Positions 30,429 through 60,662 of a stretch of DNA of 64,000 nt are shown piece after piece. The stretch comes from an uncultured Bacteroidota bacterium (GTDB lineage Bacteria; Bacteroidota; Bacteroidia; Bacteroidales; FEN-979). A program made the position numbers and the translations under genes. The DNA lies in contig CALCGJ010000031.1 in NCBI GenBank assembly GCA_937900965.1, positions 17,341 through 81,340 of the forward strand, read 5' to 3'. The notes beneath the pieces were generated by a model. The model was given only the letters and a program-made list of their open reading frames with translations, did not search any database and had not been told where the DNA came from. Position 1 is the stretch's first letter; every line of letters starts with the position of its first letter.

Positions 30429-32447
30429 ATGAAGGAACAAAAACTACGCATCGTCAAAGAGGATCCCTGGCTCGAACAGGCTGAAGCAGAGATCAGCAAC
30501 AGGTACCATCGATACTGTGACCAGCTCAATTCTATAGAATCTGAAGAGGGCTCTCTCACACGTTTTGCTGATGGCTATTTATACTTCGGTATCACTTACA
30601 ACCGGAAACACAAAGGATGGTATTACAGGGAGTGGGCGCCTCACGCAGAAGACCTCTACCTGTTTGGAGACTTCAACGACTGGCAGCGTTACTCCCACCG
30701 GATGAGCCGAATTGAATACGGTGTTTGGGAGATATTTCTACCGGAAGAGGAGTATAGGGAGCGGTTTACACATCAAAGTAAAATCAAAGTACTGGTTCAT
30801 TCCGAAACGGGATGGCAGGAGAGGATTCCAGCGTATATCAGAAGGGTTGTACAGGATCCAATCAGTCTTGATTACACAGGTCAGGTGTGGCTTCCACCTA
30901 AACCATTCAACTGGGAAAAAGATAATTTTTCCATTGGACGGCTGAAAGAGTTGGTGATCTATGAAACACATCCCGGAATGTCGCAGGAACGGGAAGGTGT
31001 TGGCACATTTGTCGAGTTCGCCGATTACCTTATTCCCTACATAAAGAATGCGGGCTATAATGTAATTCAACTGATGGCGGTTGCCGAACATCCCTATTAT
31101 GGCTCCTTCGGATATCATGTCACCAATTTTTTCGCAGTATCCAGCCGGTTTGGCACACCTGAAGATCTGAAATACCTCATCAAAAAGGCTCACGAACAGG
31201 ATATAGCAGTGATCATGGACGTGGTTCACTCCCATGCTGCCAAGAATACCCTGGAGGGGCTGAATGGATTTGATGGTTCCGGTCATCAGTATTTTCACGC
31301 AGATGAACGCGGGAACCATCCTCACTGGGACTCTAAGATTTTTGATTACGGCAAACGTGAAGTCCTTCGTTTTCTCCTTTCAAATCTAAAATTCTGGTTG
31401 AAGGAGTTTCATTTTGACGGTTTCCGCTTCGATGGTGTAACCAGCATGATCTATTTTGATCATGGCTTCCGGGAAATATGGGACCTGAAAGGATTTTTCA
31501 AAGAGGGAGTAGAGTGGGATGCCCTCACCTACCTCCAACTAGCCAACACATTGGTACACAGGATCAAGCCAAAATCGGTTACAATAACAGAGGAGGTCAG
31601 CGGTATGCCAGGCATGTGCTGGCCTATAAAGGATGGGGGCATTGGCTTTGATTACCGTTTGGGTATGGCAATTCCCGACTATTGGATCCGGCTTCTCAAA
31701 GAGAAACAGGATGAAGATTGGAATATTCATGATCTCTGGCACACATTGAATGATCACCTGCCCTCTGTTAAAACAGTAGCCTATTGCGAGTCCCACGACC
31801 AGGCATTGGTTGGAGACCAGACCCTCGCATTCAGGTTGATGCAATCAGAGATCTATTTCAATATGTCAAAACACGATCAGAGCGTAGTCATTGACCGGGG
31901 GCTGGCACTTCACAAGATGATCCGGTTGATCACGATCTCACTTGGTGGACAAGCTTACCTGAACTTTATGGGAAATGAGTTCGGCCATCCCGAATGGATC
32001 GATTTCCCCCGGGAGGGCAATAACTGGAGTTTCTATCATGCCCGCCGGCAATGGTCTCTGGTGGAAAATCCGGATCTGAAATACCACTTTCTTGCTGAAT
32101 TTGACCGAAAGATGCTAAGTATTGTCAAAGCACATCATATTCTTTCTCAAAATTACGGACAGCAAATCAACATGGATGAAGAGAATAAAACCATTGTGTT
32201 TGAGAAAGAGGGACTGATCTTTGTCTTTAACTTCCACCCCGACCGCTCAATCCCCGGCTACTCTTTTCAGTTGCCGGAACCAGGAGATTATATCCCTGTG
32301 TTAAATACCGATAGTCCTGAATTCGGTGGCCAGGGAAGGATCGACGAATTACAAAAACACATCACCACATTCGATATAAAAACCAGGACCCACTGGCTTA
32401 CAATCTACAACACCAACCGCACCGCACAGATCTTCAAACGGGTTTAA
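30429..32447 (+). CDS. glgB: 1,4-alpha-glucan branching enzyme, GH13 (eukaryote-like GH13_8 type), cytoplasmic
   Basis: The four GH13 regions are DVVHSHA, GFRFDGVTSM, TITEEVSGMP and AYCESHDQALVGD. No signal peptide is present. Confidence 0.88.
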   Translation: MKEQKLRIVKEDPWLEQAEAEISNRYHRYCDQLNSIESEEGSLTRFADGYLYFGITYNRKHKGWYYREWAPHAEDLYLFGDFNDWQRYSHRMSRIEYGVWEIFLPEEEYRERFTHQSKIKVLVHSETGWQERIPAYIRRVVQDPISLDYTGQVWLPPKPFNWEKDNFSIGRLKELVIYETHPGMSQEREGVGTFVEFADYLIPYIKNAGYNVIQLMAVAEHPYYGSFGYHVTNFFAVSSRFGTPEDLKYLIKKAHEQDIAVIMDVVHSHAAKNTLEGLNGFDGSGHQYFHADERGNHPHWDSKIFDYGKREVLRFLLSNLKFWLKEFHFDGFRFDGVTSMIYFDHGFREIWDLKGFFKEGVEWDALTYLQLANTLVHRIKPKSVTITEEVSGMPGMCWPIKDGGIGFDYRLGMAIPDYWIRLLKEKQDEDWNIHDLWHTLNDHLPSVKTVAYCESHDQALVGDQTLAFRLMQSEIYFNMSKHDQSVVIDRGLALHKMIRLITISLGGQAYLNFMGNEFGHPEWIDFPREGNNWSFYHARRQWSLVENPDLKYHFLAEFDRKMLSIVKAHHILSQNYGQQINMDEENKTIVFEKEGLIFVFNFHPDRSIPGYSFQLPEPGDYIPVLNTDSPEFGGQGRIDELQKHITTFDIKTRTHWLTIYNTNRTAQIFKRV

Positions 32448-32480
32448 CCCCGGTTCTGCAAAAATCTGAGAGAAAACGAT

Positions 32481-32488
32481 TACTTTTG
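32481..32488 (+). promoter_or_regulatory. Candidate -7 box TACTTTTG
   Basis: It matches TAnnTTTG and lies 23 nt upstream of the ATG at 32511. Confidence 0.4.
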
Positions 32489-32510
32489 CATTATCTATAA
32501 TCCCACGAAT

Positions 32511-34118
32511 ATGAACAATTCTGCAACCAGGTTTGTGCTAATACTGCTTCTGCTTACTCCCTTAAGTGTTTTGCAAGCTTCAGGCGAAATCGCCGACACG
32601 TCATACAACTTCCTGTTCAAGCTGAACATGACCAAAGCCGTCCAGGATAGCCTTTTTAATCCCAACTCCGACACCGTCTATGTCCATTTCGAAGAGAACA
32701 TTCCTGACCTTCAACTATTTGAAGGCTCAGACCGGGTTTTCAGCGGTCTGATTCAGCAGGGGCTTGATTCGGGTGCTACATATCACTTCAGATACCGCAT
32801 CATCAGTGGCAATGATACAATTGATGAGTCAATCAGCAGAGAGGTTACAGCAATGCCGGGAGTAACAGAGATTTTCGCCTGGTGGAATGATGAATACCTG
32901 AATACTACAACCTTTCGCGTAAATTTCTCGGGAACTCCGGATTCAGTTTTCCACATCGGTGTGGATACAATACAGATCATGGGTGATATGACAGAGTGGG
33001 AACCAATCCAGCTCCAGCGTGCAGGATCCACCTCTGACTACGATATCTCATTCCACCTTGATCCCTCCCTTCTTTATGAATATATCTTCAGGATCATCCG
33101 GGATAGTATAATAACCTATGAGGACTTTGGAGGCCTGAGCCGGATGTTTTTACCACCTGACACTACGATCACTGTTATTCAGTATTTTAACAATCAGGAT
33201 ACAACGAAAATATTGTTGACTCTTGAATGCAACATGAACATCCAGACTGAATTTGGGAACTTTAATCCACTAACCGACTTTCTCGATGTGGCAGGAAATT
33301 TCAACGACTGGGGAGCGTGGGATCTTCTATACGACCCTTATCAAACCGGTCGGTATACGATCTCAAAGTTGTTTGACAATACACTGATTGGAGGAGCTCC
33401 CGTCGAATTCAAATTCCGGATTAACGGATCCTGGGCTACCGCTGAGCTTGACAGCCTGGATCCCCGTTCATATGTACTTCAACCGATTGACACAAACGGA
33501 AACCCCAATACGTACATTTGCTGGTATAACAATATAGGCCCTGTTGTTCCCTCACCACCCTGGGTAACGGATTTGTACATCCAGGGGTTAATAGAGGTGA
33601 AGCAGATTCTCACCGGATCATACCTCTATCATAATCTGAGCGGAATTCCTGAGGGAAACTCTCTTTACAAGTGGTACCGGGCCGATTCTGTAGGAGGGAC
33701 ACTGGAACCGATCGATAGCGCATGGACCGTCAATTACACGACCGACACCATTGCTGATATGGGGAAATACCTTGTGTTTGAGGTTACTCCTGTTGCATCT
33801 TCCGGCGAAGATACACTGGGTTTGCCTGTACAGGTTTATACCACAGGCCGTATCGGTGGCGTCGGCATTCAGGAATTTGCGCAGAACCCTATCCGTATCT
33901 ATCCCAATCCAGCAGAGTATGCAATTATATGCGAAGGTTTATATCCTATCAATCAGGTTGAGATATTCTCCCTTGTAGGCCAGGTTGTATTCAGAGCAAC
34001 TCATTTTGATGAGAAAAGTGTCAGGCTTGATATTTCCACGCTTCCTCCGGGTTTGTATCTGTTGAAAGCCTATAGCGCGGATCACCTGCCTGCGCTTCAG
34101 AGGTTTATTAAACAGTGA
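32511..34118 (+). CDS. T9SS-secreted protein with repeated putative glycan-binding (CBM-like) modules; paralog of 50703..52712
   Basis: It has a signal peptide. The internal modules are LDVAGNFNDWGAW…EFKFRINGSWATAEL. The C-terminal T9SS domain is IRIYPNPAEY…GLYLLKAY…FIKQ. A block of about 120 aa is shared with ORF 50703. Confidence 0.75.
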   Translation: MNNSATRFVLILLLLTPLSVLQASGEIADTSYNFLFKLNMTKAVQDSLFNPNSDTVYVHFEENIPDLQLFEGSDRVFSGLIQQGLDSGATYHFRYRIISGNDTIDESISREVTAMPGVTEIFAWWNDEYLNTTTFRVNFSGTPDSVFHIGVDTIQIMGDMTEWEPIQLQRAGSTSDYDISFHLDPSLLYEYIFRIIRDSIITYEDFGGLSRMFLPPDTTITVIQYFNNQDTTKILLTLECNMNIQTEFGNFNPLTDFLDVAGNFNDWGAWDLLYDPYQTGRYTISKLFDNTLIGGAPVEFKFRINGSWATAELDSLDPRSYVLQPIDTNGNPNTYICWYNNIGPVVPSPPWVTDLYIQGLIEVKQILTGSYLYHNLSGIPEGNSLYKWYRADSVGGTLEPIDSAWTVNYTTDTIADMGKYLVFEVTPVASSGEDTLGLPVQVYTTGRIGGVGIQEFAQNPIRIYPNPAEYAIICEGLYPINQVEIFSLVGQVVFRATHFDEKSVRLDISTLPPGLYLLKAYSADHLPALQRFIKQ

Positions 34119-34120
34119 TG

Positions 34121-34187: not shown

Positions 34188-34199
34188 TACTACTGACGC

Positions 34200-35513
34200 A
34201 TGACCAAAAAACCAGCGTTATCGTTCTGGCAAATCTGGAACATGAGTTTCGGTTTCCTTGGGATCCAGTTTGGTTGGGGGCTTCAGATGGCAAATATGAG
34301 CGCCATCTACGAATACCTGGGAGCTGAACCTGATCAAATTCCATTACTCTGGCTGGCTGCGCCTTTAACCGGGTTGATCGTGCAGCCTATAATCGGAAAC
34401 ATGAGTGACCGCACCTGGAACCGCATGGGTCGCCGTCGCCCCTATTTTCTTGTCGGGGCTCTTCTCTCTTCTGCAGCGCTCATTTTCATGCCCAACTCTT
34501 CGGCGTTATGGATGGCCGCCGGATTACTCTGGGTACTGGATGCCTCAATCAACATTTCGATGGAACCATTTCGCGCTTTTGTAGCCGATATGTTACCTGA
34601 AAAACAACGGGCAAGGGGATTTGCTATGCAGAGTATCTTTATTGGGTTGGGAGCTATAATTGCATCAGCTCTTCCCTGGATACTTACGAACCTGTTCGAC
34701 GTGCAAGGCGGGAGTAGTGAAGGTTCAGTCATACCCCTATCCGTAAAACTTTCTTTTTACGTAGGAGCTGCTGCTTTCTTCGGAGCAGTCCTCTGGACTA
34801 TCATCCGTACCAAAGAGTACCCCCCTGAGGATATGGAAGCATTCAGAGCAAAAAATACGGAAAGGCGCAGCATCGGCCAGTTTTTTACCGAGATATTTCA
34901 GGATATTCTTCACATGCCTGCGGCAATGAAAAGACTGGCCTGGGTTCAGATATTTTCCTGGCTCGGACTTTTTTGTATGTGGCTCTATTTTCCTGTTGCT
35001 GTTGCACGGAATGTGTTTGGTGCTCCCTCAGAGACTTCTGAGATCTACCAGCAAGGAATCGAATGGGCCGGTCTCTGTTTTGCCATGTATTCTCTCGTTT
35101 GCTTTGGATTCGCTTTCCTGCTACCCCTAATCGCAACGCGGATCGGGATGGCGTGGACCCATATCATCAGTCTGGCCTGTGGCGCTGCAGGGCTTATATC
35201 GGTTGCTGTCATCCACGACCCCTGGCTTCTTATGCTCTCCATGACTGGAGTTGGCATTGCCTGGGCAAGTATCCTCTCCATGCCATATGCCATCCTTTCA
35301 GGATCTTTACCTCCGGAAAAAACAGGTGTTTACATGGGGATATTCAACTTTTTCATTGTTCTTCCGGAGATCTTTGCCTCACTGGTATTCGGATGGGTGA
35401 TGCTGAACATCCTTGACAATAACCGTATGGCCGCCGTGATTGCCGGAGGAGTCTGCATGCTGATCGCCGCAGGGTTTATGTTGCGGGTCAGGGACGAAGG
35501 AAATAGCGCATAG
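34200..35513 (+). CDS. MFS sugar transporter, SLC45/GPH-like (probable maltose/malto-oligosaccharide:H+ symporter)
   Basis: It has 12-TM composition and the signature [21 protein letters not shown]. It lies in an alpha-glucan locus. Confidence 0.8.
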
Positions 35514-35618: not shown

Positions 35619-37121
35619 ATGATAGAAGAACGTGCCAGCGGGATTCTCCTGCACCCCACTTCACTTCCGGGAAAATACGGGATCGGGACACTGGGAAAAG
35701 CTGCAACCGACTTTATTGACTTCCTTGTACGATCGAAACAGAAATACTGGCAGATCCTTCCACTGGGTCCAACCGGATATGCCGATTCGCCATACCAGTG
35801 TTATTCAGCCCATGCAGGTAACCCGAATCTGATTGATCTGGAGATTCTGGTCAAGGAACGTTTGCTTAGCTTCGAAGATCTGAATGAATTTCCCGTTTCT
35901 GATAATGGCCCAGTCGACTTCGACATGGTTCAGAAAGCAAGAAAACCATTCCTCTATAAAGCTTATAAAAACTTCAGTGAAAGGAATGATCCAACTGCAA
36001 AACTGAAATTCCGGAACTTCCTGAAAGAGAATTACTCCTGGCTGAATGATTATGCCCTGTTTGTAGCCATTAAAAACAACCTTGAGTTCAAACCATGGTA
36101 TGACTGGGAAGAAGATATCAAAAAGCGGCAACCCGAAGCATTGAAACACTATGAGGATCTGGTCCGGGATGAGATCGATTACAATAAATTCACCCAGTAT
36201 ATCTTTTTCCGGCAATGGACTTCTGTTAAAGAGTATGCCCATCAGAGATCGGTCCGGATCATCGGCGATATTCCACTCTATATCTCCCCCGACAGCGCCG
36301 ATGCATGGACCAATCCCGGAATCTTCGAATATGATGAAGAACTCAACCCCATCCATGTCGGGGGTGTCCCTCCCGACTATTTCAGTGAAACGGGTCAACT
36401 CTGGGGGAATCCTCTTTTCCGTTGGGAAGAAAAAACAGAAGAGGTCTTCCGTTGGTGGGCCGACCGGATACAGAGTAATTTGAACATGTTTGACATCATC
36501 CGGATTGATCATTTTCGCGGATTTGCAGCTTATTGGGCTGTACCCTATGGCGAGACCACCGCAATCAACGGCAATTGGGTTGATGGGCCGGGGAAGGAGT
36601 TCTTCACAGCCATGGTTGAACGGCTTGGTAATCTGCCGGTCATAGCAGAAGATCTGGGTGTGATCACCCCTGATGTTGAAGAACTTCGCGATGAATTTGG
36701 TTTCCCCGGAATGAAAGTCCTCGAGTTTGCTTTTGATTCAGCCGAGACAAATGATTACCTGCCATTCAACTATACAAAAAACTGTATTGTATATACGGGG
36801 ACGCATGATAATGACACCGTAAAGGGGTGGTTTGCCGCTGCCAGTGATTCTGACCGGGCCTGCACACTCAATTATCTCAATACAACAGGAGAAGATATCC
36901 ACTGGGATATGATCAGACTCGCTTTGTCTTCTGTTGCGAATACAGCTATTATTCCCCTGCAGGATCTGCTGGGGCTGGATTCATCGGGGCGGATGAATGT
37001 ACCTGGAACGACAAACAACAACTGGCGATGGAGAGCCCTTACAGAGGACTTTACAGATGAACTGGCGGCAAAACTGGCAAAGCTGACAGTGCTATTTGGA
37101 AGATATAACGAGGGAAAGTGA
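35619..37121 (+). CDS. malQ: 4-alpha-glucanotransferase (amylomaltase), GH77
   Basis: The N-terminus is RASGILLHPTSLPGKYGIGTLG. It also has IIGDIPLYI, RIDHFRGF and TGTHDNDT. Confidence 0.9.
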   Translation: MIEERASGILLHPTSLPGKYGIGTLGKAATDFIDFLVRSKQKYWQILPLGPTGYADSPYQCYSAHAGNPNLIDLEILVKERLLSFEDLNEFPVSDNGPVDFDMVQKARKPFLYKAYKNFSERNDPTAKLKFRNFLKENYSWLNDYALFVAIKNNLEFKPWYDWEEDIKKRQPEALKHYEDLVRDEIDYNKFTQYIFFRQWTSVKEYAHQRSVRIIGDIPLYISPDSADAWTNPGIFEYDEELNPIHVGGVPPDYFSETGQLWGNPLFRWEEKTEEVFRWWADRIQSNLNMFDIIRIDHFRGFAAYWAVPYGETTAINGNWVDGPGKEFFTAMVERLGNLPVIAEDLGVITPDVEELRDEFGFPGMKVLEFAFDSAETNDYLPFNYTKNCIVYTGTHDNDTVKGWFAAASDSDRACTLNYLNTTGEDIHWDMIRLALSSVANTAIIPLQDLLGLDSSGRMNVPGTTNNNWRWRALTEDFTDELAAKLAKLTVLFGRYNEGK

Positions 37122-37274: not shown

Positions 37275-39137
37275 ATGCTACGGAGTGTAATAGTGATCAT
37301 CGCAGGATTTCTGAGCCTGACCCTTGTCGCACAGAAAAACCAGGAATTACGTGTAGAGCCTACATTCTGGTGGACTGGATTTCAACATCCGGAACTTCAG
37401 CTTCTTGTCCATGCAAATAACATCTCTGCAACTACTGTCGCTTTCTCCTATCCGGGAGTCGAAGTGGCCAGTATTGAGACGGTAAAGAATCCGAACTACC
37501 TCTTTATCAACCTCCTTATCTCTGACGAAGCCAAACCCGGGAAATTTCAGGTTCGGTTCATGAAAGAGAAAGCCGTGGTTGAGGAATATTCCTATGAATT
37601 GAGGCAACGGGATCTCAGCAGAAAGTATCACCGGGGTTTCGATGCTTCCGATGTGATCTATCTCCTGATGCCCGACCGGTTTGCCAATGGTGATACAACC
37701 AACGACAATGCCCCAGGTATGAGAGAAGATGCTGACCGGGCAAACCCAAACGGCCGTCATGGCGGAGATATCAAGGGAATTACCGATCACCTTGATTACC
37801 TGGAAGAACTTGGGGTTACGACTCTCTGGATAAATCCCCTGCTTGAGAACAACCAGGAAATATATTCCTACCACGGATATTCCACTACCGACTATTACAA
37901 AATAGATCCGCGATTTGGCACAAATGAAGATTATGTTGCCCTCTCTAATGCGATCCATGCCCGCGGAATGAAACTGGTTATGGATATGATCTTCAACCAT
38001 TGCGGCAGCTTCCACTGGTGGATGAAAGACCTCCCTTCGGATGACTGGATCAACGAATGGCCGGAATTTACCCGTACTTCATACCGGGCAGGTACGGTTT
38101 CTGATCCTTATGCCTCTCCTGCCGACAGTGAGAAATTTGTCAGGGGCTGGTTTGACCAAACTATGCCCGATCTCAACCAGCACAACTCCTACCTGAAGAA
38201 TTACCTGATCCAGAACAGCATCTGGTGGACCGAATTCGCTCATCTTGACGGCATCAGACAGGACACCCATCCTTATCCCTTCAAGGATATGATGGCGGAA
38301 TGGGGGAAACGAATGAAGGATGAATATCCCCATTTTAACATCATTGGCGAATGCTGGATGGCATATCCCTCCACCGTAGCTTACTGGCAACAGGATGCCC
38401 CCAATAAAGACGGATACAATTCATACCTCCCCAGCGTGTTTGATTTTCCCATGTACGACGCACTACGTGAGGCCTTCACCCAACCCGAAGGCTGGAATAC
38501 AGGGATCCTTCACCTGTACGAGGTGCTGTCGCAGGATGGGGCCTATCCGGATCCAATGAATGTGGTCACCTTTGCCGACAATCACGATGTGAACAGGTAT
38601 CTGAAAACGCAGCAGAATGATGTTCGTAACCTGAAAATGGCCATGGCTTTTATCCTGACCACGCGAGGTATTCCCCAGATCTTTTACGGCACCGAGATGC
38701 TGATGACCACCGGAGAAGATGAGGGGCATGGCGCCCTCAGGCATGATGTCCACGGAGGCTGGCCCGGTGACGTTCGGGATGCATTTACCGAAAAAGGAAG
38801 AACTCCGGAGGAGCAGGATATGTTTTCCTACCTGCAAACCATTCTGCGATGGCGAAAAAATAATCCGGTAATTCATTCCGGGCAACTGAGTCATTACATT
38901 CCACAGGATGGCGTTTACGTCTATTTTAGGTATAATGAAACAGATACGGTGATGGTGGTGATAAATAAGAATGACGAAATAAAAGCCCTCGATACAAGTC
39001 GATTCTCAGACTTTCTGAGTAGCCATTCCATAGGAAATGAGATCATTACCGGGCAACAAATAAACCAACTGAATCCCATTACTCTTGCTCCGAAATCAGT
39101 GAAGATTATTGAAATAAATCACCAATCAATAGAATGA
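37275..39137 (+). CDS. Periplasmic GH13 alpha-amylase-family enzyme, SusA-like neopullulanase/cyclomaltodextrinase type
   Basis: The ATG at 37275 gives an SPI-type signal peptide, MLRSVIVIIAGFLSLTLVAQ. The GH13 regions are DMIFNHCG, GIRQDTHPY, IIGECW and FADNHDVNR. Confidence 0.85.
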   Translation: MLRSVIVIIAGFLSLTLVAQKNQELRVEPTFWWTGFQHPELQLLVHANNISATTVAFSYPGVEVASIETVKNPNYLFINLLISDEAKPGKFQVRFMKEKAVVEEYSYELRQRDLSRKYHRGFDASDVIYLLMPDRFANGDTTNDNAPGMREDADRANPNGRHGGDIKGITDHLDYLEELGVTTLWINPLLENNQEIYSYHGYSTTDYYKIDPRFGTNEDYVALSNAIHARGMKLVMDMIFNHCGSFHWWMKDLPSDDWINEWPEFTRTSYRAGTVSDPYASPADSEKFVRGWFDQTMPDLNQHNSYLKNYLIQNSIWWTEFAHLDGIRQDTHPYPFKDMMAEWGKRMKDEYPHFNIIGECWMAYPSTVAYWQQDAPNKDGYNSYLPSVFDFPMYDALREAFTQPEGWNTGILHLYEVLSQDGAYPDPMNVVTFADNHDVNRYLKTQQNDVRNLKMAMAFILTTRGIPQIFYGTEMLMTTGEDEGHGALRHDVHGGWPGDVRDAFTEKGRTPEEQDMFSYLQTILRWRKNNPVIHSGQLSHYIPQDGVYVYFRYNETDTVMVVINKNDEIKALDTSRFSDFLSSHSIGNEIITGQQINQLNPITLAPKSVKIIEINHQSIE

Positions 39138-40469: not shown

Positions 40470-40760
40470 ATGAAGAAGGAAAAAATCATAGTAAAAGGAA
40501 CTGAGATTTCAGTTTTACAGTTTAATAGAGAAGACTTCATTTCTCTCACTGATATTGCAAGATACAAAGATGCTAACCGTACAGATTATATTATACAAAA
40601 CTGGTTAAGAAACAGGAATACTATTGAGTTACTTGGCTTTTGGGAACAAATCTATAATCCTGATTTTAAACCCATCGAATTCGATGGGTTTAGAAAAAAA
40701 GATAAAGTCATTGCTTCAAAATGTAACATTGAAAAAACTAAAGTAGATTATGATAGATAG
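40470..40760 (+). pseudogene. Truncated KilA-N domain gene (N-terminal ~75 aa only)
   Basis: KIIVKGTEISVLQFNREDFISLTDIARYK…IQNWLRNRNTIELLGFWEQIYNPDFKPIEFDGF matches the N-terminal half of Bacteroidota KilA-N proteins. The frame then degenerates and stops. The local sequence is AT-rich. Confidence 0.65.
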
Positions 40761-47448: not shown

Positions 47449-50400
47449 TTAAAAATTAAGATTCACTCCGAACGAAAAGGTCTTCGCCTGCGGAGGGCTG
47501 AGATAGGTAACCCCTTGTGTGATGTTACCGCTTTGGTCGCGGTTGACTTCAGGATCCCACCCGCCGTATTTAGTCCATGTCCACCAGTTCTGAGCCAGGA
47601 AATAGACACGGATACTGGACATCGCAATTGTCTTTGACCAGTTGGATGGCAGCGTATACCCGATGGTAAATGTCTTCAGCCGGATAAAAGCGCCATCATC
47701 CAGGTACCTTGTAGAGTTGTGGGTAGAATAGGTATTTTCCCAAAGCAGTTGTGGTGTCTCTGCATCATCGCCAGGTTTCGTCCAGTGGTTCTCGATCGTG
47801 GTCATCTGGTTCCAGTTTGCTCCGATCGAGCCACCTTCGAAAAACTTTCCATCATCACGGTAGACATCATTTCCCCACTGAAAGGTGAACAGGATTGAGG
47901 CATCGATGCCTTTCCATGAAAAGATATTATTGAAACCTCCAAACCAGGAAGGATAGGGATTTCCGGTCACTTTTGCATTGTTGGCAAAAAAGTCAGGATC
48001 TCCGTCATCCCATGGACCGATAGTTCCATCAGCCAGAACGAACAATTCCGTTCCTGTCTGCGGATCTACACCATAGTACTCAACAAGCCTCCATGCTCCT
48101 ACCGGGCTCCCCTCCTGTGCATAGTTGTTACCATAGTTCTCTCCGGCCACAATTTGTCCCTGGATATCAAGGATCTCATTTTTGTTGTTGTTGATGTTGA
48201 ATTCAGTCTGCCACTTGAATTTACCCACCAGGTTATTGCTGGTGATAAACAACTCGACCCCTCTGTTCTGCATGGTTCCCACGTTCATGGTTACGCTGGA
48301 TGCCCCGCTGGTTTGCGGGATATTGACATTCAACAACATATCGGAAGTATACTTATAGTAATAATCAAATCCTCCCGAGATCCGTCCACCCCATAATGCG
48401 TAGTCAAGACCCACATCAAGCTGGGAGGTCTTTTCCCAACCAAGGTTTGGATTTCCGATAATATCCAGCTTGATTCCCGGTTCACCGTTGTAACGGGTTG
48501 AATTATAGGAGCCGAAATAGCGGTAATTCCCGATTTCTGCATTCCCGGTCATTCCGTAGCTTGTCCTGAATTTCAGATAGGAAAGTACTTTTTTCATACC
48601 TTCCGGATAGAACTTCTCTTCAGTAATAGTCCATCCGATTGAGGTAGCGGGGAACCATCCCCATTTATTTCCGGGACCAAACCTGGAAGAGGCATCACGA
48701 CGCAAACTGAAGGTAAAATAATACCTGTTGGCGAAGTTATAAGTGGCCCGCCCGATATAAGATAAAAACCCATAAGATTCCGTCCAGTTATCGGCAGTGA
48801 TAATGGAAGCGCTTCCGGGTTGGGTGAGGTCAGGGCTTGGAAAATCGGAACCGGTTATCCAGTTTCCATACTCATTGCTGTTTTGCACCTGAAAACCGAG
48901 GAATGCGGACAAGGCATGCTTGTTAAAGGTCTTATCGATATTGAGTGATAGCAGGTTTGTATATGACTCAACCTGAACCCTCCGGTCGGTAGCAACAGCA
49001 TTTTCATGGGTGATTGTCCCTTCATATTTATAATCTTTCAGGTACATGTTGTTCAAACCGAAATCATTCCGCAGTGATAACCATTTGGTGAAATGAAACT
49101 CGCCAAATACATTTCCGATGATGGAAAAAGTATTCGCTGAATAGGTAAGGTCATCCCGGGTAGCAACCACATTTGTGAAATTTGAGCTCTTAGGTGCAAA
49201 AAAGCCTCCTGTGGAGGTATAGACCGGCATAATTGGCAATGAGCGGCTTTGAGCTGTTCCAATTCCCCCGGCCCAGCCGGTTGGTACCCGGTTGTTGATC
49301 GTGTAGGACACTCCAACATTGGCTCCGAATTTAAACTTGTCAGATGCAATGTGAGAAAAATTTACCCTTCCGTTGATCCTCTTGAACTTATTATCCTGGA
49401 TAAATCCCTTTTCACCATAATAGGCTCCGTTTATGAAATACTGGGTTTTGGCAGTTCCTCCGGTAGCCGAAAGGGAGGCATTTTGCAGGAACCCAGTGTT
49501 AAGCATCTCATCGAGCCAGTTTGTGTTGGTATTATCAATAACGTTCTTATTGGCATCATAGGTTTCCATTTTCTGCTGGTCGGAAAAGCTATTGTAATCT
49601 CCTTCAAAAAGGAGGTTGGTATTGTAAATACCGTATGGTAACTGTTCATAGTATTCCTGTTCCGTACCCATGGTGGAGTTGAACCAGGCCTCTTTGGTAA
49701 GCCTCAGGTAAGCAGGACCGTCAAGGATCTTCAATCGGTTGGTTACGGTATTGAAACCAGCCCAGTAATTGAAACTGAAAAGGGTCTTTGGTTCACCTTT
49801 GCCAAGTTTTCCCTGTTTTGTTGTGATAAGAACCACACCATTCGATGACCGGGCTCCATATATAGCAGCCGCAGCCGCATCTTTCAGAATCTCAATCGAA
49901 GCAATATCGGCCGGATCGATCTGGGAGAGGACATTAGACTTATCCGGAAATCCCGATTCATTGGTATAACTCCCCGAGATGGCTGGAACTCCATCGACAA
50001 CATAAAGAGGTTCACTACTGGCCAGAATGGAGGAGGTTCCACGGATACGGAAGGTAACAGCCCCCCCCGGAAGTCCATTATCACTTGTTATTTGAACTCC
50101 GGGTGTACGACCTTGCAATGCCTTCCCAAAATTCTCCACGGGTATTGACTCGATCTCTTTGGCCTTCACTGTAGTGATAGAGCTTGTAATATCCCGCTTT
50201 CGTTCGGTACCATATCCAACCACCACTATCTCGTCCAGCATCAGGTTATCCTCAGCGATTTTAAAATTCTGGATCACTGTCTTCCCCTGAACGATTGTTA
50301 TCGGTGCAGACATTGTCTGATACCCTATATAACTGCATACCAGCACCTGATTTCCTGCAGGTGCATCAAAGGAGTATTGCCCATCAAGATTTGTGGACAC

Positions 50401-50568
50401 CCCAATGGTCGTCCCTTCAATGTATACGTTGGCTCCGGGAATTTTCTCCCCTGTCTGCGAATCCTCAACAATCCCGGTAATCACGCCGGTTTGTGAGAAA
50501 CCACTCAGCCCGCAGAGCACCAAAACGATAGAAACGAACCATGACTTCAAACGTACAATTTTCCTCAT
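47449..50568 (-). CDS. susC: SusC/RagA-family TonB-dependent outer-membrane transporter
   Basis: It has a signal peptide, a carboxypeptidase-regulatory-like domain (ITGIVEDSQTGEKIPGANVYIEGTTIGVSTNLDGQYSF), a plug (DEIVVVGYGT…) and a C-terminal beta-barrel ending …GVNLNF. Confidence 0.92.
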   Translation of the reverse strand: MRKIVRLKSWFVSIVLVLCGLSGFSQTGVITGIVEDSQTGEKIPGANVYIEGTTIGVSTNLDGQYSFDAPAGNQVLVCSYIGYQTMSAPITIVQGKTVIQNFKIAEDNLMLDEIVVVGYGTERKRDITSSITTVKAKEIESIPVENFGKALQGRTPGVQITSDNGLPGGAVTFRIRGTSSILASSEPLYVVDGVPAISGSYTNESGFPDKSNVLSQIDPADIASIEILKDAAAAAIYGARSSNGVVLITTKQGKLGKGEPKTLFSFNYWAGFNTVTNRLKILDGPAYLRLTKEAWFNSTMGTEQEYYEQLPYGIYNTNLLFEGDYNSFSDQQKMETYDANKNVIDNTNTNWLDEMLNTGFLQNASLSATGGTAKTQYFINGAYYGEKGFIQDNKFKRINGRVNFSHIASDKFKFGANVGVSYTINNRVPTGWAGGIGTAQSRSLPIMPVYTSTGGFFAPKSSNFTNVVATRDDLTYSANTFSIIGNVFGEFHFTKWLSLRNDFGLNNMYLKDYKYEGTITHENAVATDRRVQVESYTNLLSLNIDKTFNKHALSAFLGFQVQNSNEYGNWITGSDFPSPDLTQPGSASIITADNWTESYGFLSYIGRATYNFANRYYFTFSLRRDASSRFGPGNKWGWFPATSIGWTITEEKFYPEGMKKVLSYLKFRTSYGMTGNAEIGNYRYFGSYNSTRYNGEPGIKLDIIGNPNLGWEKTSQLDVGLDYALWGGRISGGFDYYYKYTSDMLLNVNIPQTSGASSVTMNVGTMQNRGVELFITSNNLVGKFKWQTEFNINNNKNEILDIQGQIVAGENYGNNYAQEGSPVGAWRLVEYYGVDPQTGTELFVLADGTIGPWDDGDPDFFANNAKVTGNPYPSWFGGFNNIFSWKGIDASILFTFQWGNDVYRDDGKFFEGGSIGANWNQMTTIENHWTKPGDDAETPQLLWENTYSTHNSTRYLDDGAFIRLKTFTIGYTLPSNWSKTIAMSSIRVYFLAQNWWTWTKYGGWDPEVNRDQSGNITQGVTYLSPPQAKTFSFGVNLNF

Positions 50569-50702: not shown

Positions 50703-52712
50703 ATGAAAAAATTTACTTTGAACTTATTAAAAAGCATGCTGGTGCTGGTTGCATTTGCTGCTGTTTTGAGTGTTTCCCATGCACAGATGCCCGCCGCTAT
50801 CACGATTGAGCCGGCCGGCGCAACCGTGTTTGATGACATTACTCTCACCTTCAACCCCGAGATGGCCTGCTTCCAGAATGCATCCCTTGCCGGTGTACCC
50901 CTGGTTTATATGCATTCAGGTGTAAGAATTGGTGGAAATAACTGGCAGAATGTTGTGGAATACAATGCGGTTGGCGCCAACGGAGAGTCACCACACCTGC
51001 AACCCAATGGCGACGGCACTTACTCTATTTCTTATAATCCCGCCGCTTTCTATGACATCGCCCCAGGAACCATTGTGACACATATTTGTGCCGTGTTCAA
51101 TGATGGCCAATGGGATTCCAAGGATGGACGTGATTTCGATCCTGCCAATCCGCCGAATTGCATGGACTTCTTCATTCCTTTGGCATTCACCTCCACTGAT
51201 CCAAAATTCTCGTTCAAAGTGAATATGAATAAAGCTTTTAACGAAGGGATCTTTGATCCTGTTTCCGATGATGTTTATGCCATCGTTGCTGAAAGGGTCG
51301 ATCCCATTCTCCTTGATCCGAGCGTAGATCTTATCTATACGGGCACCCTGGAAGCAGGACTCGATTCAGGTGTGGTATACAACATCCATTTCAGGATCAA
51401 TGATGACCTGAACGAAGATGTAACCCGTCCCTATACAGCGGTCCCGGGAAATGTCGAAATCGATGTTTGGTGGAACGACGATCCGATCAATGCAGTCGTT
51501 TTCCAGTGCGATATGACATACCAGGTTGACCTGGGTACCTTTGATCCGGCTGTTGACTTCCTGGATATAGCAGGAAGTATGAATGGCTGGTCAGGATCAC
51601 CTCATATGGCCCAGGTTGGCACATCATTCGTTTACGAGATCTCATACACCCTTGAGGCCGGAACAATTTATGAATACAAATACCGGATCAACGGTGACTG
51701 GGCCACCTCCGAGTTCCCTGACGGAGGCCCCAACCGGATGTTCCTCGCTCCTTCCGAGCCCAAAACAGTTCTGAACATTTACAACGATTTCAACCCGGCT
51801 ACCATCCCGATGCTGTTCCAGTGCAACATGTCCTACCAGATCTCGGCAGGTCATTTTGATCCTATGGTCGACTATCTCGACATTGCCGGAAATATGAACG
51901 GATGGGGAGCATACGACGTTTGTTTCGACCGGGGTAACGATCAAGTCTATGTGATTACCATGATGATCGATACGATCAATGTTGGCGGATCTCCCATTGA
52001 GTTTAAATTCAGGTTTAACGGCGACTGGGGCACATCAGAATTCCCGGGAGGCGGCCCAAACCGTAAATACAACCTCCAGGATACTACGGGTGGATTTATG
52101 AATACCTATTATTGCTGGTATTCCGATCTGGACCCAAGTGTAGCTACTCCTCCCTGGGCCTATGACCTGATGATCGATGGAACACTTACTGTCGGGAATG
52201 AACTGACTGGTGTTTATACCTATGAGAATGTCAATGGGATCCCCGAGGGAGCTTCAACATTCAAGTGGTACTGGGCTGATGATAACGCAGGCACCAACCT
52301 TACTGAGATTCCTGATGCCACCACCAAAAACTACACAACGCTAACTGCTGAGATCGGAAAATATGTCGCTTTTGAGGTGACCCCGATCGCTGCAAGTGGT
52401 GACTCAGCTGTAGGTTTGCCTGTGATGGTTTATACAGACGAACCAATTGGTGGCCTGGCTATCCAGGATGTAGGCAACACCTGGGTCAACTTCTACCCCA
52501 ACCCGGTAACTGACAAGATTACATTTGAGCACCTTGGCCAGATAACACGTATTGCTGTGTACAACCTCATGGGCCAGGAAGTAATGTCGGTAAGCAATGT
52601 CGCAACCCAAAAACTTACACTACCAACGACCACGCTGAAGGCTGGAGTCTATTTTGTGAGGTTCTTCACTCATGATCAAAGTATGGGTACTGCGAAGTTC
52701 CTGAAATTATAA
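50703..52712 (+). CDS. T9SS-secreted protein with several putative glycan-binding (CBM-like) modules; paralog of 32511..34118
   Basis: It has a signal peptide. The repeated modules are LDIAGSMNGWSGS…YKYRINGDWATSEFPDGGPNRMF and LDIAGNMNGWGAY…FKFRFNGDWGTSEFPGGGPNRKY. The T9SS tail is VNFYPNPVTDKITF…GVYFVRFF…AKFLKL. Confidence 0.75.
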   Translation: MKKFTLNLLKSMLVLVAFAAVLSVSHAQMPAAITIEPAGATVFDDITLTFNPEMACFQNASLAGVPLVYMHSGVRIGGNNWQNVVEYNAVGANGESPHLQPNGDGTYSISYNPAAFYDIAPGTIVTHICAVFNDGQWDSKDGRDFDPANPPNCMDFFIPLAFTSTDPKFSFKVNMNKAFNEGIFDPVSDDVYAIVAERVDPILLDPSVDLIYTGTLEAGLDSGVVYNIHFRINDDLNEDVTRPYTAVPGNVEIDVWWNDDPINAVVFQCDMTYQVDLGTFDPAVDFLDIAGSMNGWSGSPHMAQVGTSFVYEISYTLEAGTIYEYKYRINGDWATSEFPDGGPNRMFLAPSEPKTVLNIYNDFNPATIPMLFQCNMSYQISAGHFDPMVDYLDIAGNMNGWGAYDVCFDRGNDQVYVITMMIDTINVGGSPIEFKFRFNGDWGTSEFPGGGPNRKYNLQDTTGGFMNTYYCWYSDLDPSVATPPWAYDLMIDGTLTVGNELTGVYTYENVNGIPEGASTFKWYWADDNAGTNLTEIPDATTKNYTTLTAEIGKYVAFEVTPIAASGDSAVGLPVMVYTDEPIGGLAIQDVGNTWVNFYPNPVTDKITFEHLGQITRIAVYNLMGQEVMSVSNVATQKLTLPTTTLKAGVYFVRFFTHDQSMGTAKFLKL

Positions 52713-52754
52713 CATGACCTGATTACATAATCCCATTCCAAATGGGTCATTGAA

Positions 52755-52791: not shown

Positions 52792-52819
52792 ACCCGACGA
52801 TAATTGTAATCCCATCATG

Positions 52820-52837
52820 GGCGATTCATAAATCGCC
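52820..52837. repeat. Hairpin GGCGATT-cata-AATCGCC followed by TCTACAAT
   Basis: Read directly. It has the same hairpin+CTACAAT architecture as R2 and R3. Confidence 0.8.
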
Positions 52838-52861
52838 TCTACAATATCCCTGCAGATTTCG

Positions 52862-52869
52862 TACCTTTG
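52862..52869 (+). promoter_or_regulatory. Candidate -7 box TACCTTTG
   Basis: It matches TAnnTTTG and lies 22 nt upstream of the ATG at 52891. Confidence 0.45.
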
Positions 52870-52890
52870 CTGTAATTTAACGAATTGACC

Positions 52891-55710
52891 ATGAAGAGAC
52901 TAAAACTACTCCTGATGCTTTTTTTTCTGGCAACTGCATTGCCTCTTTTCTCACAGGTTGTTGTTACCAATCCGGAATTCGCTGTTGATATTGACTCCTG
53001 CGACGTCATATTCGACGCTACCCAGGGAAATGGTGAACTGGCGAATGTGGCCCCTCCGATTTATGCCCATACCGGGGTAATCACGAATCTCAGCACCTCT
53101 CCAACCGATTGGAAATACGTGGTGGCCGGCTGGACACAGAACATCCCGAAAGCTATGCTGATCCCTCTTGGAAACAATATCTACAAACTTAAAGTAACAC
53201 CTTCTATAAGAGAATATTATGGAGTGCCTGTATCTGAACAGATCTTGAAAATGGCATTTGTCTTCCGGAACTCCGATGGGTCAAAAGTAGGCAGGGACAG
53301 TGACGGCAGTGATATCTTCGCCGATGTCTATCCGGCCTATACAAGTGTTAACATCATCCAGCCTGTTGAAAATAACCTGCTTGTAAACCAGGGAGACAGC
53401 ATTCCTGTAGAAGCTTTTAGTCCGCTTGCCGACTCGCTCTTCCTGATCATGAATAATACAGTAGTAAAATCGGTAGCCGGACAGCTGCTGACCGATACCA
53501 TCCTGGCAGATAACTTTGGTCAGGACTGGATGGATCACTACGTTAAGATCCTGGTAAGCAACGATACAGCATCAGCCGCAGATTCATTTGCCTATATGGT
53601 GATCCCACCTTCTCCTATAGCAGCCCTGCCACAGGGTATCGTTGATGGGATCAATTACATCAACGAAACAACCGTTGTCCTCTCCCTGTTTGCACCGGGA
53701 AAACAAAACTGTTTTGTGATAGGGGATTTCAACGACTGGGAATTCGACTCGCTCTTCTATATGTATAAAACACCTGACGGAAACCGGTTCTGGATAGAGC
53801 TAACCGGTCTCATCCCTCAGAAAGAGTATATTTTTCAATACCTGGTTAACGGCACACTCAGAGTTGGAGATCCCTATGCCGATAAAGTCAGTGACTATGA
53901 CGACAGGTACATTTCAAACAGTACGTACCCGAACCTGATCCCTTATCCAACCGGTAAAACGACAGGTATTGCCACGGTCCTCCAAACCGCACAGGATCCC
54001 TATCCATGGAAACCAACCTCATTCACTCCTCCCGATGTCACCGACCTGGTTATCTATGAGTTATTGATCCGGGATTTTACTGCTCAACACGATTTCCAAT
54101 CCCTGATAGATACCCTGGATTACCTGAAGAGACTGGGTGTAAATGCTGTTGAACTGATGCCGATCATGGAGTTTGAAGGAAATATCAGCTGGGGGTATAA
54201 CCCCGATTTCAGTTTCGCCGTGGATAAATACTACGGGCCAAAAAACAGCTGCAAACAATTCGTGGAAGCAGCCCATGCCAAAGGGATAGCAGTAATCCTG
54301 GATATCGTTTGCAATCACCACTTCGGGCAATCTCCGCTGGTAAGGTTATACTGGGATGGAGCCAGCCAGCGACCAGCCCAAGATAATCCCTGGTTTAACC
54401 AGATCCCAAAGCATCCTTACAATGTTGGCTATGATTTTAACCACGAGAGCATCTACACAAAGAACTACATGGAACGGTTGATCCGTTACTGGATCAGTGA
54501 GTACCATATTGATGGATACCGTTTCGACCTCTCCAAGGGATTAACACAAAAAGATTCATACCCGAATAATGTAAGCCTCTGGGGGAAGTATGATCAATCA
54601 CGTATAGATATTCTGAAAAACTACGCAAACGCAATCTGGTCAATAAGTCCGAAAGCATATGTCATTCTTGAACATTTCGCTGATAACGACGAAGAGATCG
54701 TGCTGGCAGCTGACGACATGCTGATTTGGGGAAACATGACCGGCTCCTATGGAGACGGATCCATGGGATGGAACCAGAATGGTAAATCAAATCTCTCATG
54801 GGCCTCCTATATGCAGCGTGGCTGGGACGAGCCAAACCTTGTTGTATATATGGAGAGCCATGATGAAGAACGGATGATGTATAAAAATATCACCTGGGGC
54901 AATACTACCTCAGGTTACTCAATCAAGGATACTGCAACCGGCCTGAAAAGAATCGAACTGGCAGCCAATTTCTTCTTCGGCATCCCTGGGCCAAAGATGA
55001 TCTGGCAGTTCGGGGAGCTCGGTTACGACTATTCGATCAACTGGCCTACCGGAACGAATGAATCACGGCTCACTCCAAAACCTATCCGCTGGGATTACTT
55101 TTCCCAACCGCAGAGAAAACACGTTTACAATATCTTTGCGTCACTTGCAAATCTAAAAAAGAATCAACCCGCGTTCAAAACGACCAACTTTACACTGAAT
55201 GTTGCCAATGCCATGAAGTCGATCGTTCTGAGAAATGACAATATGGATGTGGTAATCCTTGGAAATTTTGATTTGTCCGAGAATGAGATTATCCCCAACT
55301 TTACAACTACGGGTAAATGGTATGACTACTGGACGGGGGATTCACTTGATGTAACCGATACCGGGATGCCAATCCTGTTGACTGAAGGCGAATACCGGTT
55401 ATATACCTCCAAAAAGCTACCCTCTCCTCCTTTCCTAGGAATCAATGATTCTGATTATAATACTGATAATAAAATACTTAACGCACATATTTATCCAAAT
55501 CCAACCTCCGGGATTCTGCATATCGAAACCCGGGAACAAGAGCTCCAGGTAGTTGTATCAGATCAGAGTGGCAGGCAACTTATTCAAACGACTATTTATG
55601 GAGAAGCTAAATCAACACTTGATCTTGGGTCGCTGAAGCCAGGGATGTATTTCATCCGTTTCACAGCTCAGGGAAAAGCGCAAATTGTGGGGAAAGTCAT
55701 TAAATACTAA
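52891..55710 (+). CDS. Secreted GH13 alpha-amylase-family enzyme with N-terminal binding modules and T9SS C-terminal sorting domain
   Basis: The signal peptide is MKRLKLLLMLFFLATALPLFSQ. The CBM48-like module is FVIGDFNDWEFD…YIFQYLVNG. The GH13 regions are LDIVCNHH, GYRFDLSKG, VILEHFA and YMESHDEER. The T9SS tail is HIYPNPTSGILHIE…GMYFIRF…GKVIKY. Confidence 0.88.
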   Translation: MKRLKLLLMLFFLATALPLFSQVVVTNPEFAVDIDSCDVIFDATQGNGELANVAPPIYAHTGVITNLSTSPTDWKYVVAGWTQNIPKAMLIPLGNNIYKLKVTPSIREYYGVPVSEQILKMAFVFRNSDGSKVGRDSDGSDIFADVYPAYTSVNIIQPVENNLLVNQGDSIPVEAFSPLADSLFLIMNNTVVKSVAGQLLTDTILADNFGQDWMDHYVKILVSNDTASAADSFAYMVIPPSPIAALPQGIVDGINYINETTVVLSLFAPGKQNCFVIGDFNDWEFDSLFYMYKTPDGNRFWIELTGLIPQKEYIFQYLVNGTLRVGDPYADKVSDYDDRYISNSTYPNLIPYPTGKTTGIATVLQTAQDPYPWKPTSFTPPDVTDLVIYELLIRDFTAQHDFQSLIDTLDYLKRLGVNAVELMPIMEFEGNISWGYNPDFSFAVDKYYGPKNSCKQFVEAAHAKGIAVILDIVCNHHFGQSPLVRLYWDGASQRPAQDNPWFNQIPKHPYNVGYDFNHESIYTKNYMERLIRYWISEYHIDGYRFDLSKGLTQKDSYPNNVSLWGKYDQSRIDILKNYANAIWSISPKAYVILEHFADNDEEIVLAADDMLIWGNMTGSYGDGSMGWNQNGKSNLSWASYMQRGWDEPNLVVYMESHDEERMMYKNITWGNTTSGYSIKDTATGLKRIELAANFFFGIPGPKMIWQFGELGYDYSINWPTGTNESRLTPKPIRWDYFSQPQRKHVYNIFASLANLKKNQPAFKTTNFTLNVANAMKSIVLRNDNMDVVILGNFDLSENEIIPNFTTTGKWYDYWTGDSLDVTDTGMPILLTEGEYRLYTSKKLPSPPFLGINDSDYNTDNKILNAHIYPNPTSGILHIETREQELQVVVSDQSGRQLIQTTIYGEAKSTLDLGSLKPGMYFIRFTAQGKAQIVGKVIKY

Positions 55711-60661: not shown

Positions 60662-60662
60662 T

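Follow-up and report, generated by a model that had tools for sequence, protein, structure and literature searches.

The 64-kb stretch of DNA analysed here (the window, whose positions are used throughout) comes from an uncultured, Prolixibacteraceae-like Bacteroidota bacterium. Its segment 30429–55710 is considered, with a probability of about 0.8, to be a polysaccharide utilization locus (PUL) of the hybrid type for α-glucans (starch, glycogen or maltodextrin). In the nomenclature of McKee 2021, as far as it is quoted in PMC10792170, a hybrid PUL is one that holds carbohydrate-active enzymes (CAZymes) with a type IX secretion system (T9SS) C-terminal domain (CTD) of type A. The design is therefore already known, and the locus is an example of it that is widespread and has received little study. 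The locus is genuine and conserved, and the original prediction, that SusC/SusD import is combined here with enzyme and binding proteins delivered by the T9SS, was correct. It is supported in silico by an α-amylase of glycoside hydrolase (GH) subfamily GH13_47 with a CTD, by CTD-bearing proteins with modules of the CBM20 fold (CBM, carbohydrate-binding module), by a PorP/SprF-family gene and by a conserved core of genes. The fresh element appears to be an uncharacterised family of T9SS-sorted, putative starch-binding proteins, represented by two proteins termed CTD_A and CTD_B, that is coupled to one SusC/SusD subtype. A literature search, partial in coverage, yielded no account of this family or of a link between it and a SusC/SusD subtype.

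Organization of the locus

Open reading frames (ORFs) were listed and scanned with Pfam and NCBIfam, and signal peptides and lipoboxes were judged by eye from the N-termini. All genes named in the original prediction were recovered by these scans, with the same positions and families. Adjoining genes encode a SusC/RagA-type TonB-dependent transporter (47449..50568, minus strand; TIGR04056 822.5 bits for a cut-off of 368, TIGR04057 59 bits) and a short (445 aa) SusD-family lipoprotein (46093..47430, minus strand; SusD-like_3 93.6 bits and SusD_RagB 69.8 bits, both above the cut-offs). They are accompanied by five GH13 genes, one GH77 gene and starch-binding modules, all inside 25 kb.

A plus-strand block at 30429–46107, with gaps of 11–153 nt and a single exception of 302 nt, is convergent with the SusD and SusC genes, which are 18 nt apart. 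On the other side, the genes of CTD_B and of the GH13_47 amylase diverge from the SusC gene, from which CTD_B is separated by 134 nt. Scans for sigma-70 promoters (27 against a shuffle expectation of 29.8, with a tool that holds no Bacteroidota promoters) and for terminators (17 against 18.1) were uninformative on the operon structure of the locus.

Type-A tails and the GH13_47 amylase

Type-A CTDs were tested with TIGR04183 (cut-off 23 bits), with PF18962 alongside. Three proteins of the locus combine a Sec signal peptide with a CTD at the extreme C-terminus, as expected of type-A cargo. CTD_A (32511..34118, plus strand) is a secreted non-catalytic protein, the tail of which (residues 463–535, window 33897–34115) scores 35.7 bits with TIGR04183 and 34.4 bits with PF18962. 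CTD_B (50703..52712, plus strand), also secreted and non-catalytic, has a tail (residues 598–669, window 52494–52709; 596–669 in the model described below) that scores 44.1 bits with TIGR04183 and passes PF18962. The third is the 939-aa α-amylase (52891..55710, plus strand), with 44.3 bits for TIGR04183 and 46.5 bits for PF18962 (window 55489–55707). With this last protein, a CAZyme with a type-A CTD is present in the locus.

The amylase consists of a signal peptidase I (SPI) type signal peptide, an N-terminal module (residues 23–150, window 52957–53340), a CBM48, the catalytic domain and the CTD. Its residues 247–841 match PDB 8xx9 with an E-value of 3.4e-183. The BoGH13ASus structures 8dge and 8dl2 are matched with an E-value of 9e-106, 8dl2 being labelled as BoGH13ASus from Bacteroides ovatus by the fold-search tool. 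Subfamily GH13_47 was founded by BoGH13ASus and a Rhodothermus marinus enzyme, which are both α-1,6-tolerant α-amylases (PMC11239784). Entry 8xx9, a solved α-amylase that the tool does not name as such, is taken from that source to be the R. marinus enzyme. BoGH13ASus is the outer-membrane, surface amylase of the B. ovatus Sus (PMC11633381, PMC11784079). The catalytic residues of the window enzyme are intact: the nucleophile D546 (GYRFD546LSKG) aligns with the alanine of the mutant entry 8xxa, and the ILEHF and MESHDE motifs are conserved. In this comparison with structural homologs, the enzyme is close to the founding members of GH13_47 and displays a CBM48, a GH13 core and the triad.

The match with 8dge starts at chain residue 162, beyond the N-terminal module, which is a CBM98 in BoGH13ASus. 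The N-terminal module of the window amylase, of about 130 aa, has only a weak match to DUF4961 (E 3e-3) and shares homology with the N-terminal module of CTD_B (HHalign 99.4%, E 1e-21, 116 columns).

When one genome of each GTDB species was scanned, 471 relatives of the amylase were retrieved. The closest, with 84–85% identity, belong to Prolixibacteraceae/Bacteroidales metagenome-assembled genomes (MAGs), and further ones to Chitinophagales, Flavobacteriales, Ignavibacteriota, Melioribacteraceae and Calditrichaceae. Tails were tested in the best 80 of the 471 using a hidden Markov model (HMM) built solely from tails of the CTD_B family. The C-terminus is intact in 74 of them; every one of these carries the CTD, and nearly all have SPI-type signal peptides. 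Since every intact relative is tailed, a T9SS tail appears to be the normal state in this amylase clade. A SusC gene was present in the fetched flanks of 30 of the 73 amylase-relative loci of at least 6 kb.

The window also contains a gene of the PorP/SprF family of T9SS proteins, with 263.6 bits for a cut-off of 90.6. It lies directly upstream of the α-glucan block (25969–29076, plus strand), together with a gene for a PorE/CHU_0125-like protein with an OmpA domain, which is below both cut-offs. Because of these two genes, the host would own at least part of a T9SS. A DUF3078 gene completes the upstream run (25969–30080, plus strand). The order PorP, PorE, DUF3078, branching enzyme recurs in L114 and L129 (L-numbers are labels of fetched relative loci).

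CBM20-like modules of CTD_A and CTD_B

CTD_A and CTD_B are paralogs with 40% identity over 509 aa. CTD_A consists of a signal peptide, CBM20-like repeats, an Ig_AIR9 domain and the CTD, without an N-terminal module of the CTD_B type. Neither protein has a match to PF16411 or PF14292. The family of CTD_B counts 292 database relatives, none of which bears a name beyond "T9SS type A sorting domain-containing protein". Their Pfam matches are variously CBM48, AMPK-CBM, X25 or CBM20, together with PF18962; a few members have PF00686.

CTD_B was modelled with AlphaFold2 from an alignment of 42 family members. The model, with a predicted local distance difference test (pLDDT) score of 86.3, is a string of beta-sandwich modules. 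The N-terminal module in common with the amylase covers residues 29–160 (window 50787–51182, plus strand). It is followed in the model by three repeat modules (residues 165–260, 262–365 and 367–475), the Ig_AIR9 domain (residues 480–577) and a low-confidence flexible linker (residues 586–593), all encoded by the plus strand. Positions occupied by Trp, Asn, Glu and Arg are invariant in the family in every repeat, the tryptophans W296, W333, W401 and W442 among them.

A Foldseek search with the whole chain returned mostly generic multi-Ig receptors and was uninformative. Modules 2 and 3 (residues 262–475, window 51486–52127, plus strand) were then modelled alone, with a pLDDT of 93.9. The corresponding search gave 42 matches at E ≤ 0.001, nearly all with CBM20 domains. 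The best one was the CBM20 of STBD1 with maltotetraose (8x8k; target-normalized template modelling score, TMt, of 0.70–0.74). Others were domain E of cyclodextrin glucanotransferase, glucoamylase and beta-amylase. The exceptions at this threshold were the Eubacterium rectale CBM26 (6b15), which ranked second, and one antibody Fab of low probability. As modelled, modules 2 and 3 thus adopt the CBM20 beta-sandwich fold. This fold and the domain matches at the family level support the view that the modules of CTD_B are starch-binding. The proteins at 32511 and 50703, both originally described as putative glycan-binding proteins, retain this description on account of their CBM20-fold modules and passing CTDs.

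Coupling of the CTD family to a SusC/SusD subtype

Loci of the CTD_B family were collected by a metagenome scan with the family alignment and by three context look-ups, which yielded 83 loci, 64 of them of at least 6 kb. A homolog of an α-glucan gene of the window was found in 56 of these 64, and the GH13_47 amylase in 31. The order of the right-hand part of the window (two GH13 lipoproteins, SusD and SusC on the minus strand, CTD_B and amylase) recurs in L001, L002, L004, L021 and L062. Its core, that is SusD–SusC divergent from CTD_B–amylase, is also present in L083, L085, L086 and L149. SusD and SusC genes stand beside CTD_B in L082, L090, L091 and L096, where the amylase was not seen within the fetched sequence. 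The left-hand block (DUF3078, branching enzyme, CTD_A, MFS carrier, MalQ, SusA, second MFS carrier, esterase and GH13 lipoprotein; MFS, major facilitator superfamily) is kept wholly or largely in about 20 contigs, and the synteny of branching enzyme, CTD_A, MFS carrier and MalQ in about 20 loci. Given this recurrence in many independent contigs, a chance co-location of T9SS cargo and PUL was rejected.

The association was counted over all fetched loci plus the window, and separately over a subset of loci that had been found by way of the amylase alone. A CTD-family gene accompanies the window-type SusC in 14 of 14 cases (window included), and a SusE/F-like gene in none. Two canonical SusC types (n = 37) are accompanied by a CTD-family gene in 16 cases and by a SusE/F-like gene in 28. 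In the amylase-ascertained subset, the figures for the window-type and canonical SusC are 5/5 versus 1/22 for the CTD family (Fisher p = 7e-5) and 0/5 versus 15/22 for SusE/F-like genes (p = 0.01); the loci are phylogenetically related, so that these p-values overstate their independence. Several lineages are nevertheless involved, since the identities of the window-type SusC range from 47% to 96%.

A swap at one position of the locus was observed in L003 and L018. In these two closer relatives, whose amylases are 75% and 60% identical to that of the window, respectively, the interval from the compact GH13 lipoprotein to the amylase is filled by co-directional genes. They encode a SusC with 28% identity to the window SusC, a SusD with a length of about 500 aa, and a SusE/F-like lipoprotein that matches PF16411. 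For its SusC/SusD subtype, CTD_B is encoded at the place where canonical Sus-like loci have their SusE/F lipoproteins. CTD_B probably has their role as well.

Strict replacement of SusE/F by CTD proteins was rejected as a general rule, because both kinds occur together in L112 and in further loci. In L112, SusE-like, SusD and SusC genes face the amylase and a CTD-family protein. The SusD-family protein of this locus (L112 1492–3699, minus strand; 735 aa) has an inserted SusF_SusE domain (PF16411), an unusual fused SusD/SusE-F architecture. Its gene adjoins the SusE-like gene and faces those of the T9SS amylase and the CTD-family protein.

It is tentatively proposed, at less than even odds, that CTD_A and CTD_B stand for a new and widespread class of surface proteins that bind glycans and are sorted by the T9SS. 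They would serve a distinct SusC/short-SusD subtype as its extracellular partners, taking the place of SusE/F, and would perhaps recruit the amylase through the shared N-terminal module. If so, a "utilisome-like" starch-capture complex would be assembled from T9SS cargo and not from lipoproteins.

The most serious competing explanation, possible though not favoured, is that the amylase, CTD_A, CTD_B and the esterase are released as soluble public goods. The CBM proteins would then disrupt or target starch granules at a distance and would not be equivalents of SusE/F. The activity of the T9SS amylase of Flavobacterium johnsoniae was measured in cell-free supernatants (PMC11885536), and the chitinase ChiA is secreted wholly in soluble form (PMC5127042). 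In addition, 43 of the 73 amylase-relative loci have no SusC within 10 kb, those of Ignavibacteriota among them. On the other side stand the strict genomic coupling and divergent transcription of the window-type SusC/SusD and CTD_B genes in all 14 loci, and the occupation of the CTD_B position by a SusE/F-like gene in L003 and L018. Moreover, type-A CTD cargo of other Bacteroidota can be covalently attached to the surface; in Porphyromonas gingivalis, the attachment is made through PorU and A-type lipopolysaccharide (A-LPS).

The esterase and its divergent tail

The original prediction counted four type-A tails in the locus. Those of CTD_A, CTD_B and the amylase stood the test with TIGR04183 and PF18962; that of the esterase (40750..42222, plus strand; PF00756 88.5 bits) did not, scoring 18.2 bits (E 1.8e-3) with TIGR04183 and having no PF18962 match. 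The enzyme resembles the CE1 with CBM48 7b5v and the feruloyl esterase 6rzn, and is CE1/feruloyl-esterase-like. Its N-terminal CBM48-like module (residues 83–152) shares 35% identity with the CBM module found in the large GH13 lipoprotein presented below. The esterase gene is kept in at least 10 loci (L098–L124), always between the genes of the second MFS carrier and the large GH13 lipoprotein.

Several features suggest that the esterase tail (residues ~412–490, window 41983–42219) is probably a divergent type-A CTD. It is of suitable length and contains a YPNPF motif. The profile of the tails of the esterase family aligns with that of the CTD_B family (HHalign 96.8%, E 3e-10, 75 columns), and about 40% of the full-length esterase orthologs with 50–60% identity have a recorded PF18962 match. 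The converse, that the esterase is a periplasmic enzyme and not T9SS cargo, its C-terminal beta-domain being decayed or repurposed, is rather unlikely. It is consistent with the failure to reach the curated cut-offs, with an E-value of only 0.01 against an independent CTD HMM, and with the remaining ~60% of orthologs without recorded PF18962.

Other enzymes, carriers and neighbouring genes

The plus-strand block starts with a 1,4-α-glucan branching enzyme (30429..32447, plus strand), which contains CBM48 (CBM_48), Alpha-amylase and Alpha-amylase_C (Amy_C) domains and has no signal peptide, as a cytoplasmic enzyme. It matches rice BEI (3amk) and human GBE1 (4bzy) at ~1e-196, and bacterial GlgB only at ~1e-59. 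The gene had been described as glgB-type; the GH13 branching enzyme was recovered, of the eukaryote-type GH13_8 and not of the bacterial GH13_9. The second cytoplasmic enzyme is the GH77 4-α-glucanotransferase MalQ (35619..37121, plus strand; PF02446 608.6 bits, NF011080 731 bits for a cut-off of 477).

The SusA-type neopullulanase/cyclomaltodextrinase (37275..39137, plus strand) is GH13_46-like, with Cyc-maltodext_N, Alpha-amylase and Cyc-maltodext_C domains. Its residues 26–611 match the neopullulanase SusA (9fyz) with an E-value of 3e-183, in keeping with its initial labelling as SusA-like, and it matches a Flavobacterium cyclomaltodextrinase (1h3g) with an E-value of 1e-183. It is predicted to be periplasmic: translation from the ATG at 37275 gives the N-terminus MLRSVIVIIAGFLSLTLVAQ, an SPI signal peptide. 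For this gene and for the amylase gene at 52891, the starts chosen originally are those that yield credible signal peptides.

Two MFS sugar carriers, taken from the outset to be SLC45-like, resemble the sucrose/SLC45-type family TIGR01301, both below its cut-off. The first (34200..35513, plus strand; MFS_1 103 bits, TIGR01301 E 1.5e-31), an inner-membrane carrier of the GPH/sucrose-SLC45-like type, is a candidate importer of maltose or maltooligosaccharides. The second (39215..40447, plus strand; MFS_1 110.8 bits, TIGR01301 E 8e-18) has orthologs with 72–95% identity in syntenic loci.

Two GH13 lipoproteins follow. The large one (42234..44615, plus strand; Alpha-amylase 139 bits) is GH13_36-like, with an AMPK-CBM/CBM48-like module (AMPK1_CBM 42 bits for a cut-off of 26.8), and matches the Anoxybacillus/Geobacillus amylases 5a2a and 4e2o at ~1e-59. 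The compact one (44737..46107, plus strand; Alpha-amylase 116 bits) is GH13_48/49-like, matches 4gkl (5e-72) and 3dhu (9e-69), and scores 193 bits with NF041321 MalA-Halo, below the cut-off. An acidic run after the cysteine is the signal for surface export of Bacteroidota lipoproteins. It is present in the SusE/F-like lipoproteins of L003 (C-KKDEE) and L018 (C-KKDDT), and absent after the lipoboxes of the large (LTTC, then NPRQL) and compact (LNSC, then TSWTSG) GH13 enzymes. Because of this absence, both enzymes probably face the periplasm.

Among the ORFs of the window, Pfam and NCBIfam scans detected no GH97, GH31, PF16411 or PF14292 match, and no regulator domain (LacI, SusR, HTCS, ECF) was detected in those of at least 120 aa. 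The ORFs in the gaps comprise just a KilA-N fragment and a 90-mer resembling tetratricopeptide repeats (TPR). L083 comes from a more distant MAG of the Bacteroidales; here the neighbours of the core are genes for LacI (in the divergent gap), an MFS carrier, a haloacid dehalogenase (HAD) hydrolase/beta-phosphoglucomutase (beta-PGM) and a GH65 maltose phosphorylase; PorV is also found near this locus. The L083 LacI has homologs in 9 other loci, a weak match of 29% in L072 being excluded, and none was found by tblastn in the window or its close relatives. The absence of GH97 and GH31 enzymes and of a regulator from the window, as originally noted, is thus borne out by domain scans, small ORFs and tblastn.

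The KilA-N fragment (PF04383, 33.5 bits) is a truncated domain encoded by an ORF of 96 aa (40470–40760, plus strand) that fills the 302-nt gap and overlaps the start of the esterase gene. It is probably what is left of a gene of mobile or phage origin that had entered the locus. Beyond the amylase, PepE (55764–56546) is followed after 3 nt by the gene of a secreted protein of 912 aa (56550–59288, minus strand). This protein was tried as a candidate for the missing SusB without success: Pfam, NCBIfam and PDB gave no match for it, and its 22 homologs are all hypothetical. One source terms it a TPR protein. Weak homologs (24–29% identity) adjoin amylase and CTD-protein genes in about 40 fetched loci. 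Further downstream, a resistance-nodulation-division (RND) efflux pair (HlyD-type membrane-fusion protein and AcrB-type pump, 1110 bits; 59143–63859, plus strand) seems unrelated to the locus. Elsewhere in the window, another protein with a passing Por_Secre_tail domain (36.8 bits) and no other recognised domain (10473–11954, minus strand) adjoins a TamB-like protein of 1530 aa (11764–16356, minus strand).

Proposed route of α-glucan utilization

Family assignments, CTD matches, the CBM20 fold and conserved synteny were computed. Localization, substrate, release or attachment of the cargo and co-regulation are deduced from sequence in the scheme that follows. The amylase, one or two binding proteins (CTD_B and CTD_A) and probably the CE1-type esterase would cross the inner membrane by the Sec pathway and be exported by the T9SS. 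Outside the cell, the binding proteins would hold the polymer while the amylase cuts it into maltooligosaccharides. These would be captured by the short SusD-like lipoprotein and imported by SusC. In the periplasm, they would be shortened by the SusA-type neopullulanase and the two GH13 lipoproteins, and the products could be brought into the cytoplasm by the two SLC45-like MFS carriers. There, MalQ would disproportionate them and the GH13_8 branching enzyme could route glucan into glycogen. The scheme includes no SusB step of the GH97 or GH31 type, and no regulator gene lies in the window. The idea that T9SS sorting is used instead of lipoproteins holds for the amylase, CTD_A and CTD_B, which are tailed, and not for SusD and the two GH13 enzymes, which are still lipoproteins.

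Some observations weigh against this scheme. The SusD-like protein and the starch-binding SusD of Bacteroides thetaiotaomicron are not orthologs (NF033071 54 bits for a cut-off of 725; 3ck7 E 1.4e-4). The best PDB matches of the SusD-like protein are 3kez and 3mcx, and its ligand is predicted from synteny. CTD_B itself has no PF00686 match, scores 27.0 with X25_BaPul_like for a cut-off of 27, and is below the threshold for AMPK1_CBM. The esterase tail is below the curated cut-offs, and the scheme offers no role for this enzyme in α-glucan use. The core T9SS genes (sprA, porK/L/M/N, porU/V) lie outside the 64-kb window. A release of cargo, as in F. johnsoniae, would weaken the analogy with SusE/F, to which the coexistence of both types in L112 and the relatedness of the loci in the association test must be added.

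The remoteness of the SusD-like protein from starch-binding SusD, and the location of the SusC/SusD genes on the strand opposite to every other gene of the locus, would fit a pair that is a mere neighbour and not an α-glucan importer, the products entering by another route. This is very improbable, as the pair (47–96% SusC identity) adjoins CTD_B, and in many cases the GH13_47 amylase too, in 13 further contigs of diverged lineages, and is flanked in L083 and L149 by MFS, GH65 and LacI genes. Even less credible is a cluster devoted mainly to the turnover of endogenous glycogen and not to foraging on external starch: the cytoplasmic GH13_8 branching enzyme and GH77 MalQ do belong to the block, but seven products have signal peptides or lipoboxes, and SusC, the SusD-like protein and the T9SS-tailed proteins that bear starch-binding modules, three or four in number, make sense only for an extracellular substrate.

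Comparison with known systems

Models of glycan capture for Bacteroidota come mainly from gut Bacteroides. These are not known to possess a T9SS, hence every surface component must be a lipoprotein. Outside the gut, the default appears to be different: for α-glucans, which are the commonest of the storage polysaccharides, the GH13_47 surface amylase would usually be T9SS cargo, and a family of T9SS-sorted putative starch-binding proteins travels with it. No concept is overturned. The finding matters for pipelines that predict PULs, for the reading of secretomes and metaproteomes obtained from lakes, sediments and bioreactors, and for the choice of biochemical targets for the cooperation of T9SS cargo with SusC/SusD transporters.

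Like the Sus of B. thetaiotaomicron and B. ovatus, the window locus has a SusC-type transporter, a SusD-family lipoprotein and a SusA ortholog, and its outward amylase is a GH13_47 with CBM48 as in B. ovatus (PMC11633381). It differs from Sus in that the amylase has a T9SS CTD in place of a lipobox, the SusD is short and non-orthologous, and SusE/F, GH97 SusB and SusR are absent. MFS carriers, MalQ and the branching enzyme replace the route through a periplasmic glucosidase. As are SusE and SusF, CTD_A and CTD_B are non-catalytic, with tandem beta-sandwich modules of a starch-binding type, and are encoded beside SusC/SusD and a surface amylase. They differ from SusE and SusF by their CBM20-like modules, Ig_AIR9 domain, CTD and SPI signal peptide instead of a lipobox.

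T9SS-secreted α-amylases let F. johnsoniae feed on starch and are a routine read-out of T9SS function (PMC11885536). The window α-amylase is likewise predicted to be exported by the T9SS, whereas that account describes no partner T9SS protein made of CBMs only. T9SS-tailed CAZymes without PULs are found in rumen Bacteroidales (PMC5831590), and type-A CTD proteins made of CBMs only occur in a hybrid alginate PUL (PMC10792170).

The archetype of hybrid PULs is the chitin locus of F. johnsoniae with the T9SS-secreted ChiA (PMC5127042, PMC10792170). The window locus shares with it and with hybrid PULs the association of SusC/SusD and periplasmic enzymes with an endo-acting enzyme that carries a CTD and no lipobox. 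The CTD of ChiA is of a different type than type A. In the window, the predicted substrate is an α-glucan, the enzyme is a GH13_47 with a type-A CTD and there is no sensor or regulator gene. What further sets the window locus apart from the archetype is the presence of a conserved, non-catalytic, CBM20-like protein family that is tied to one SusC/SusD subtype.

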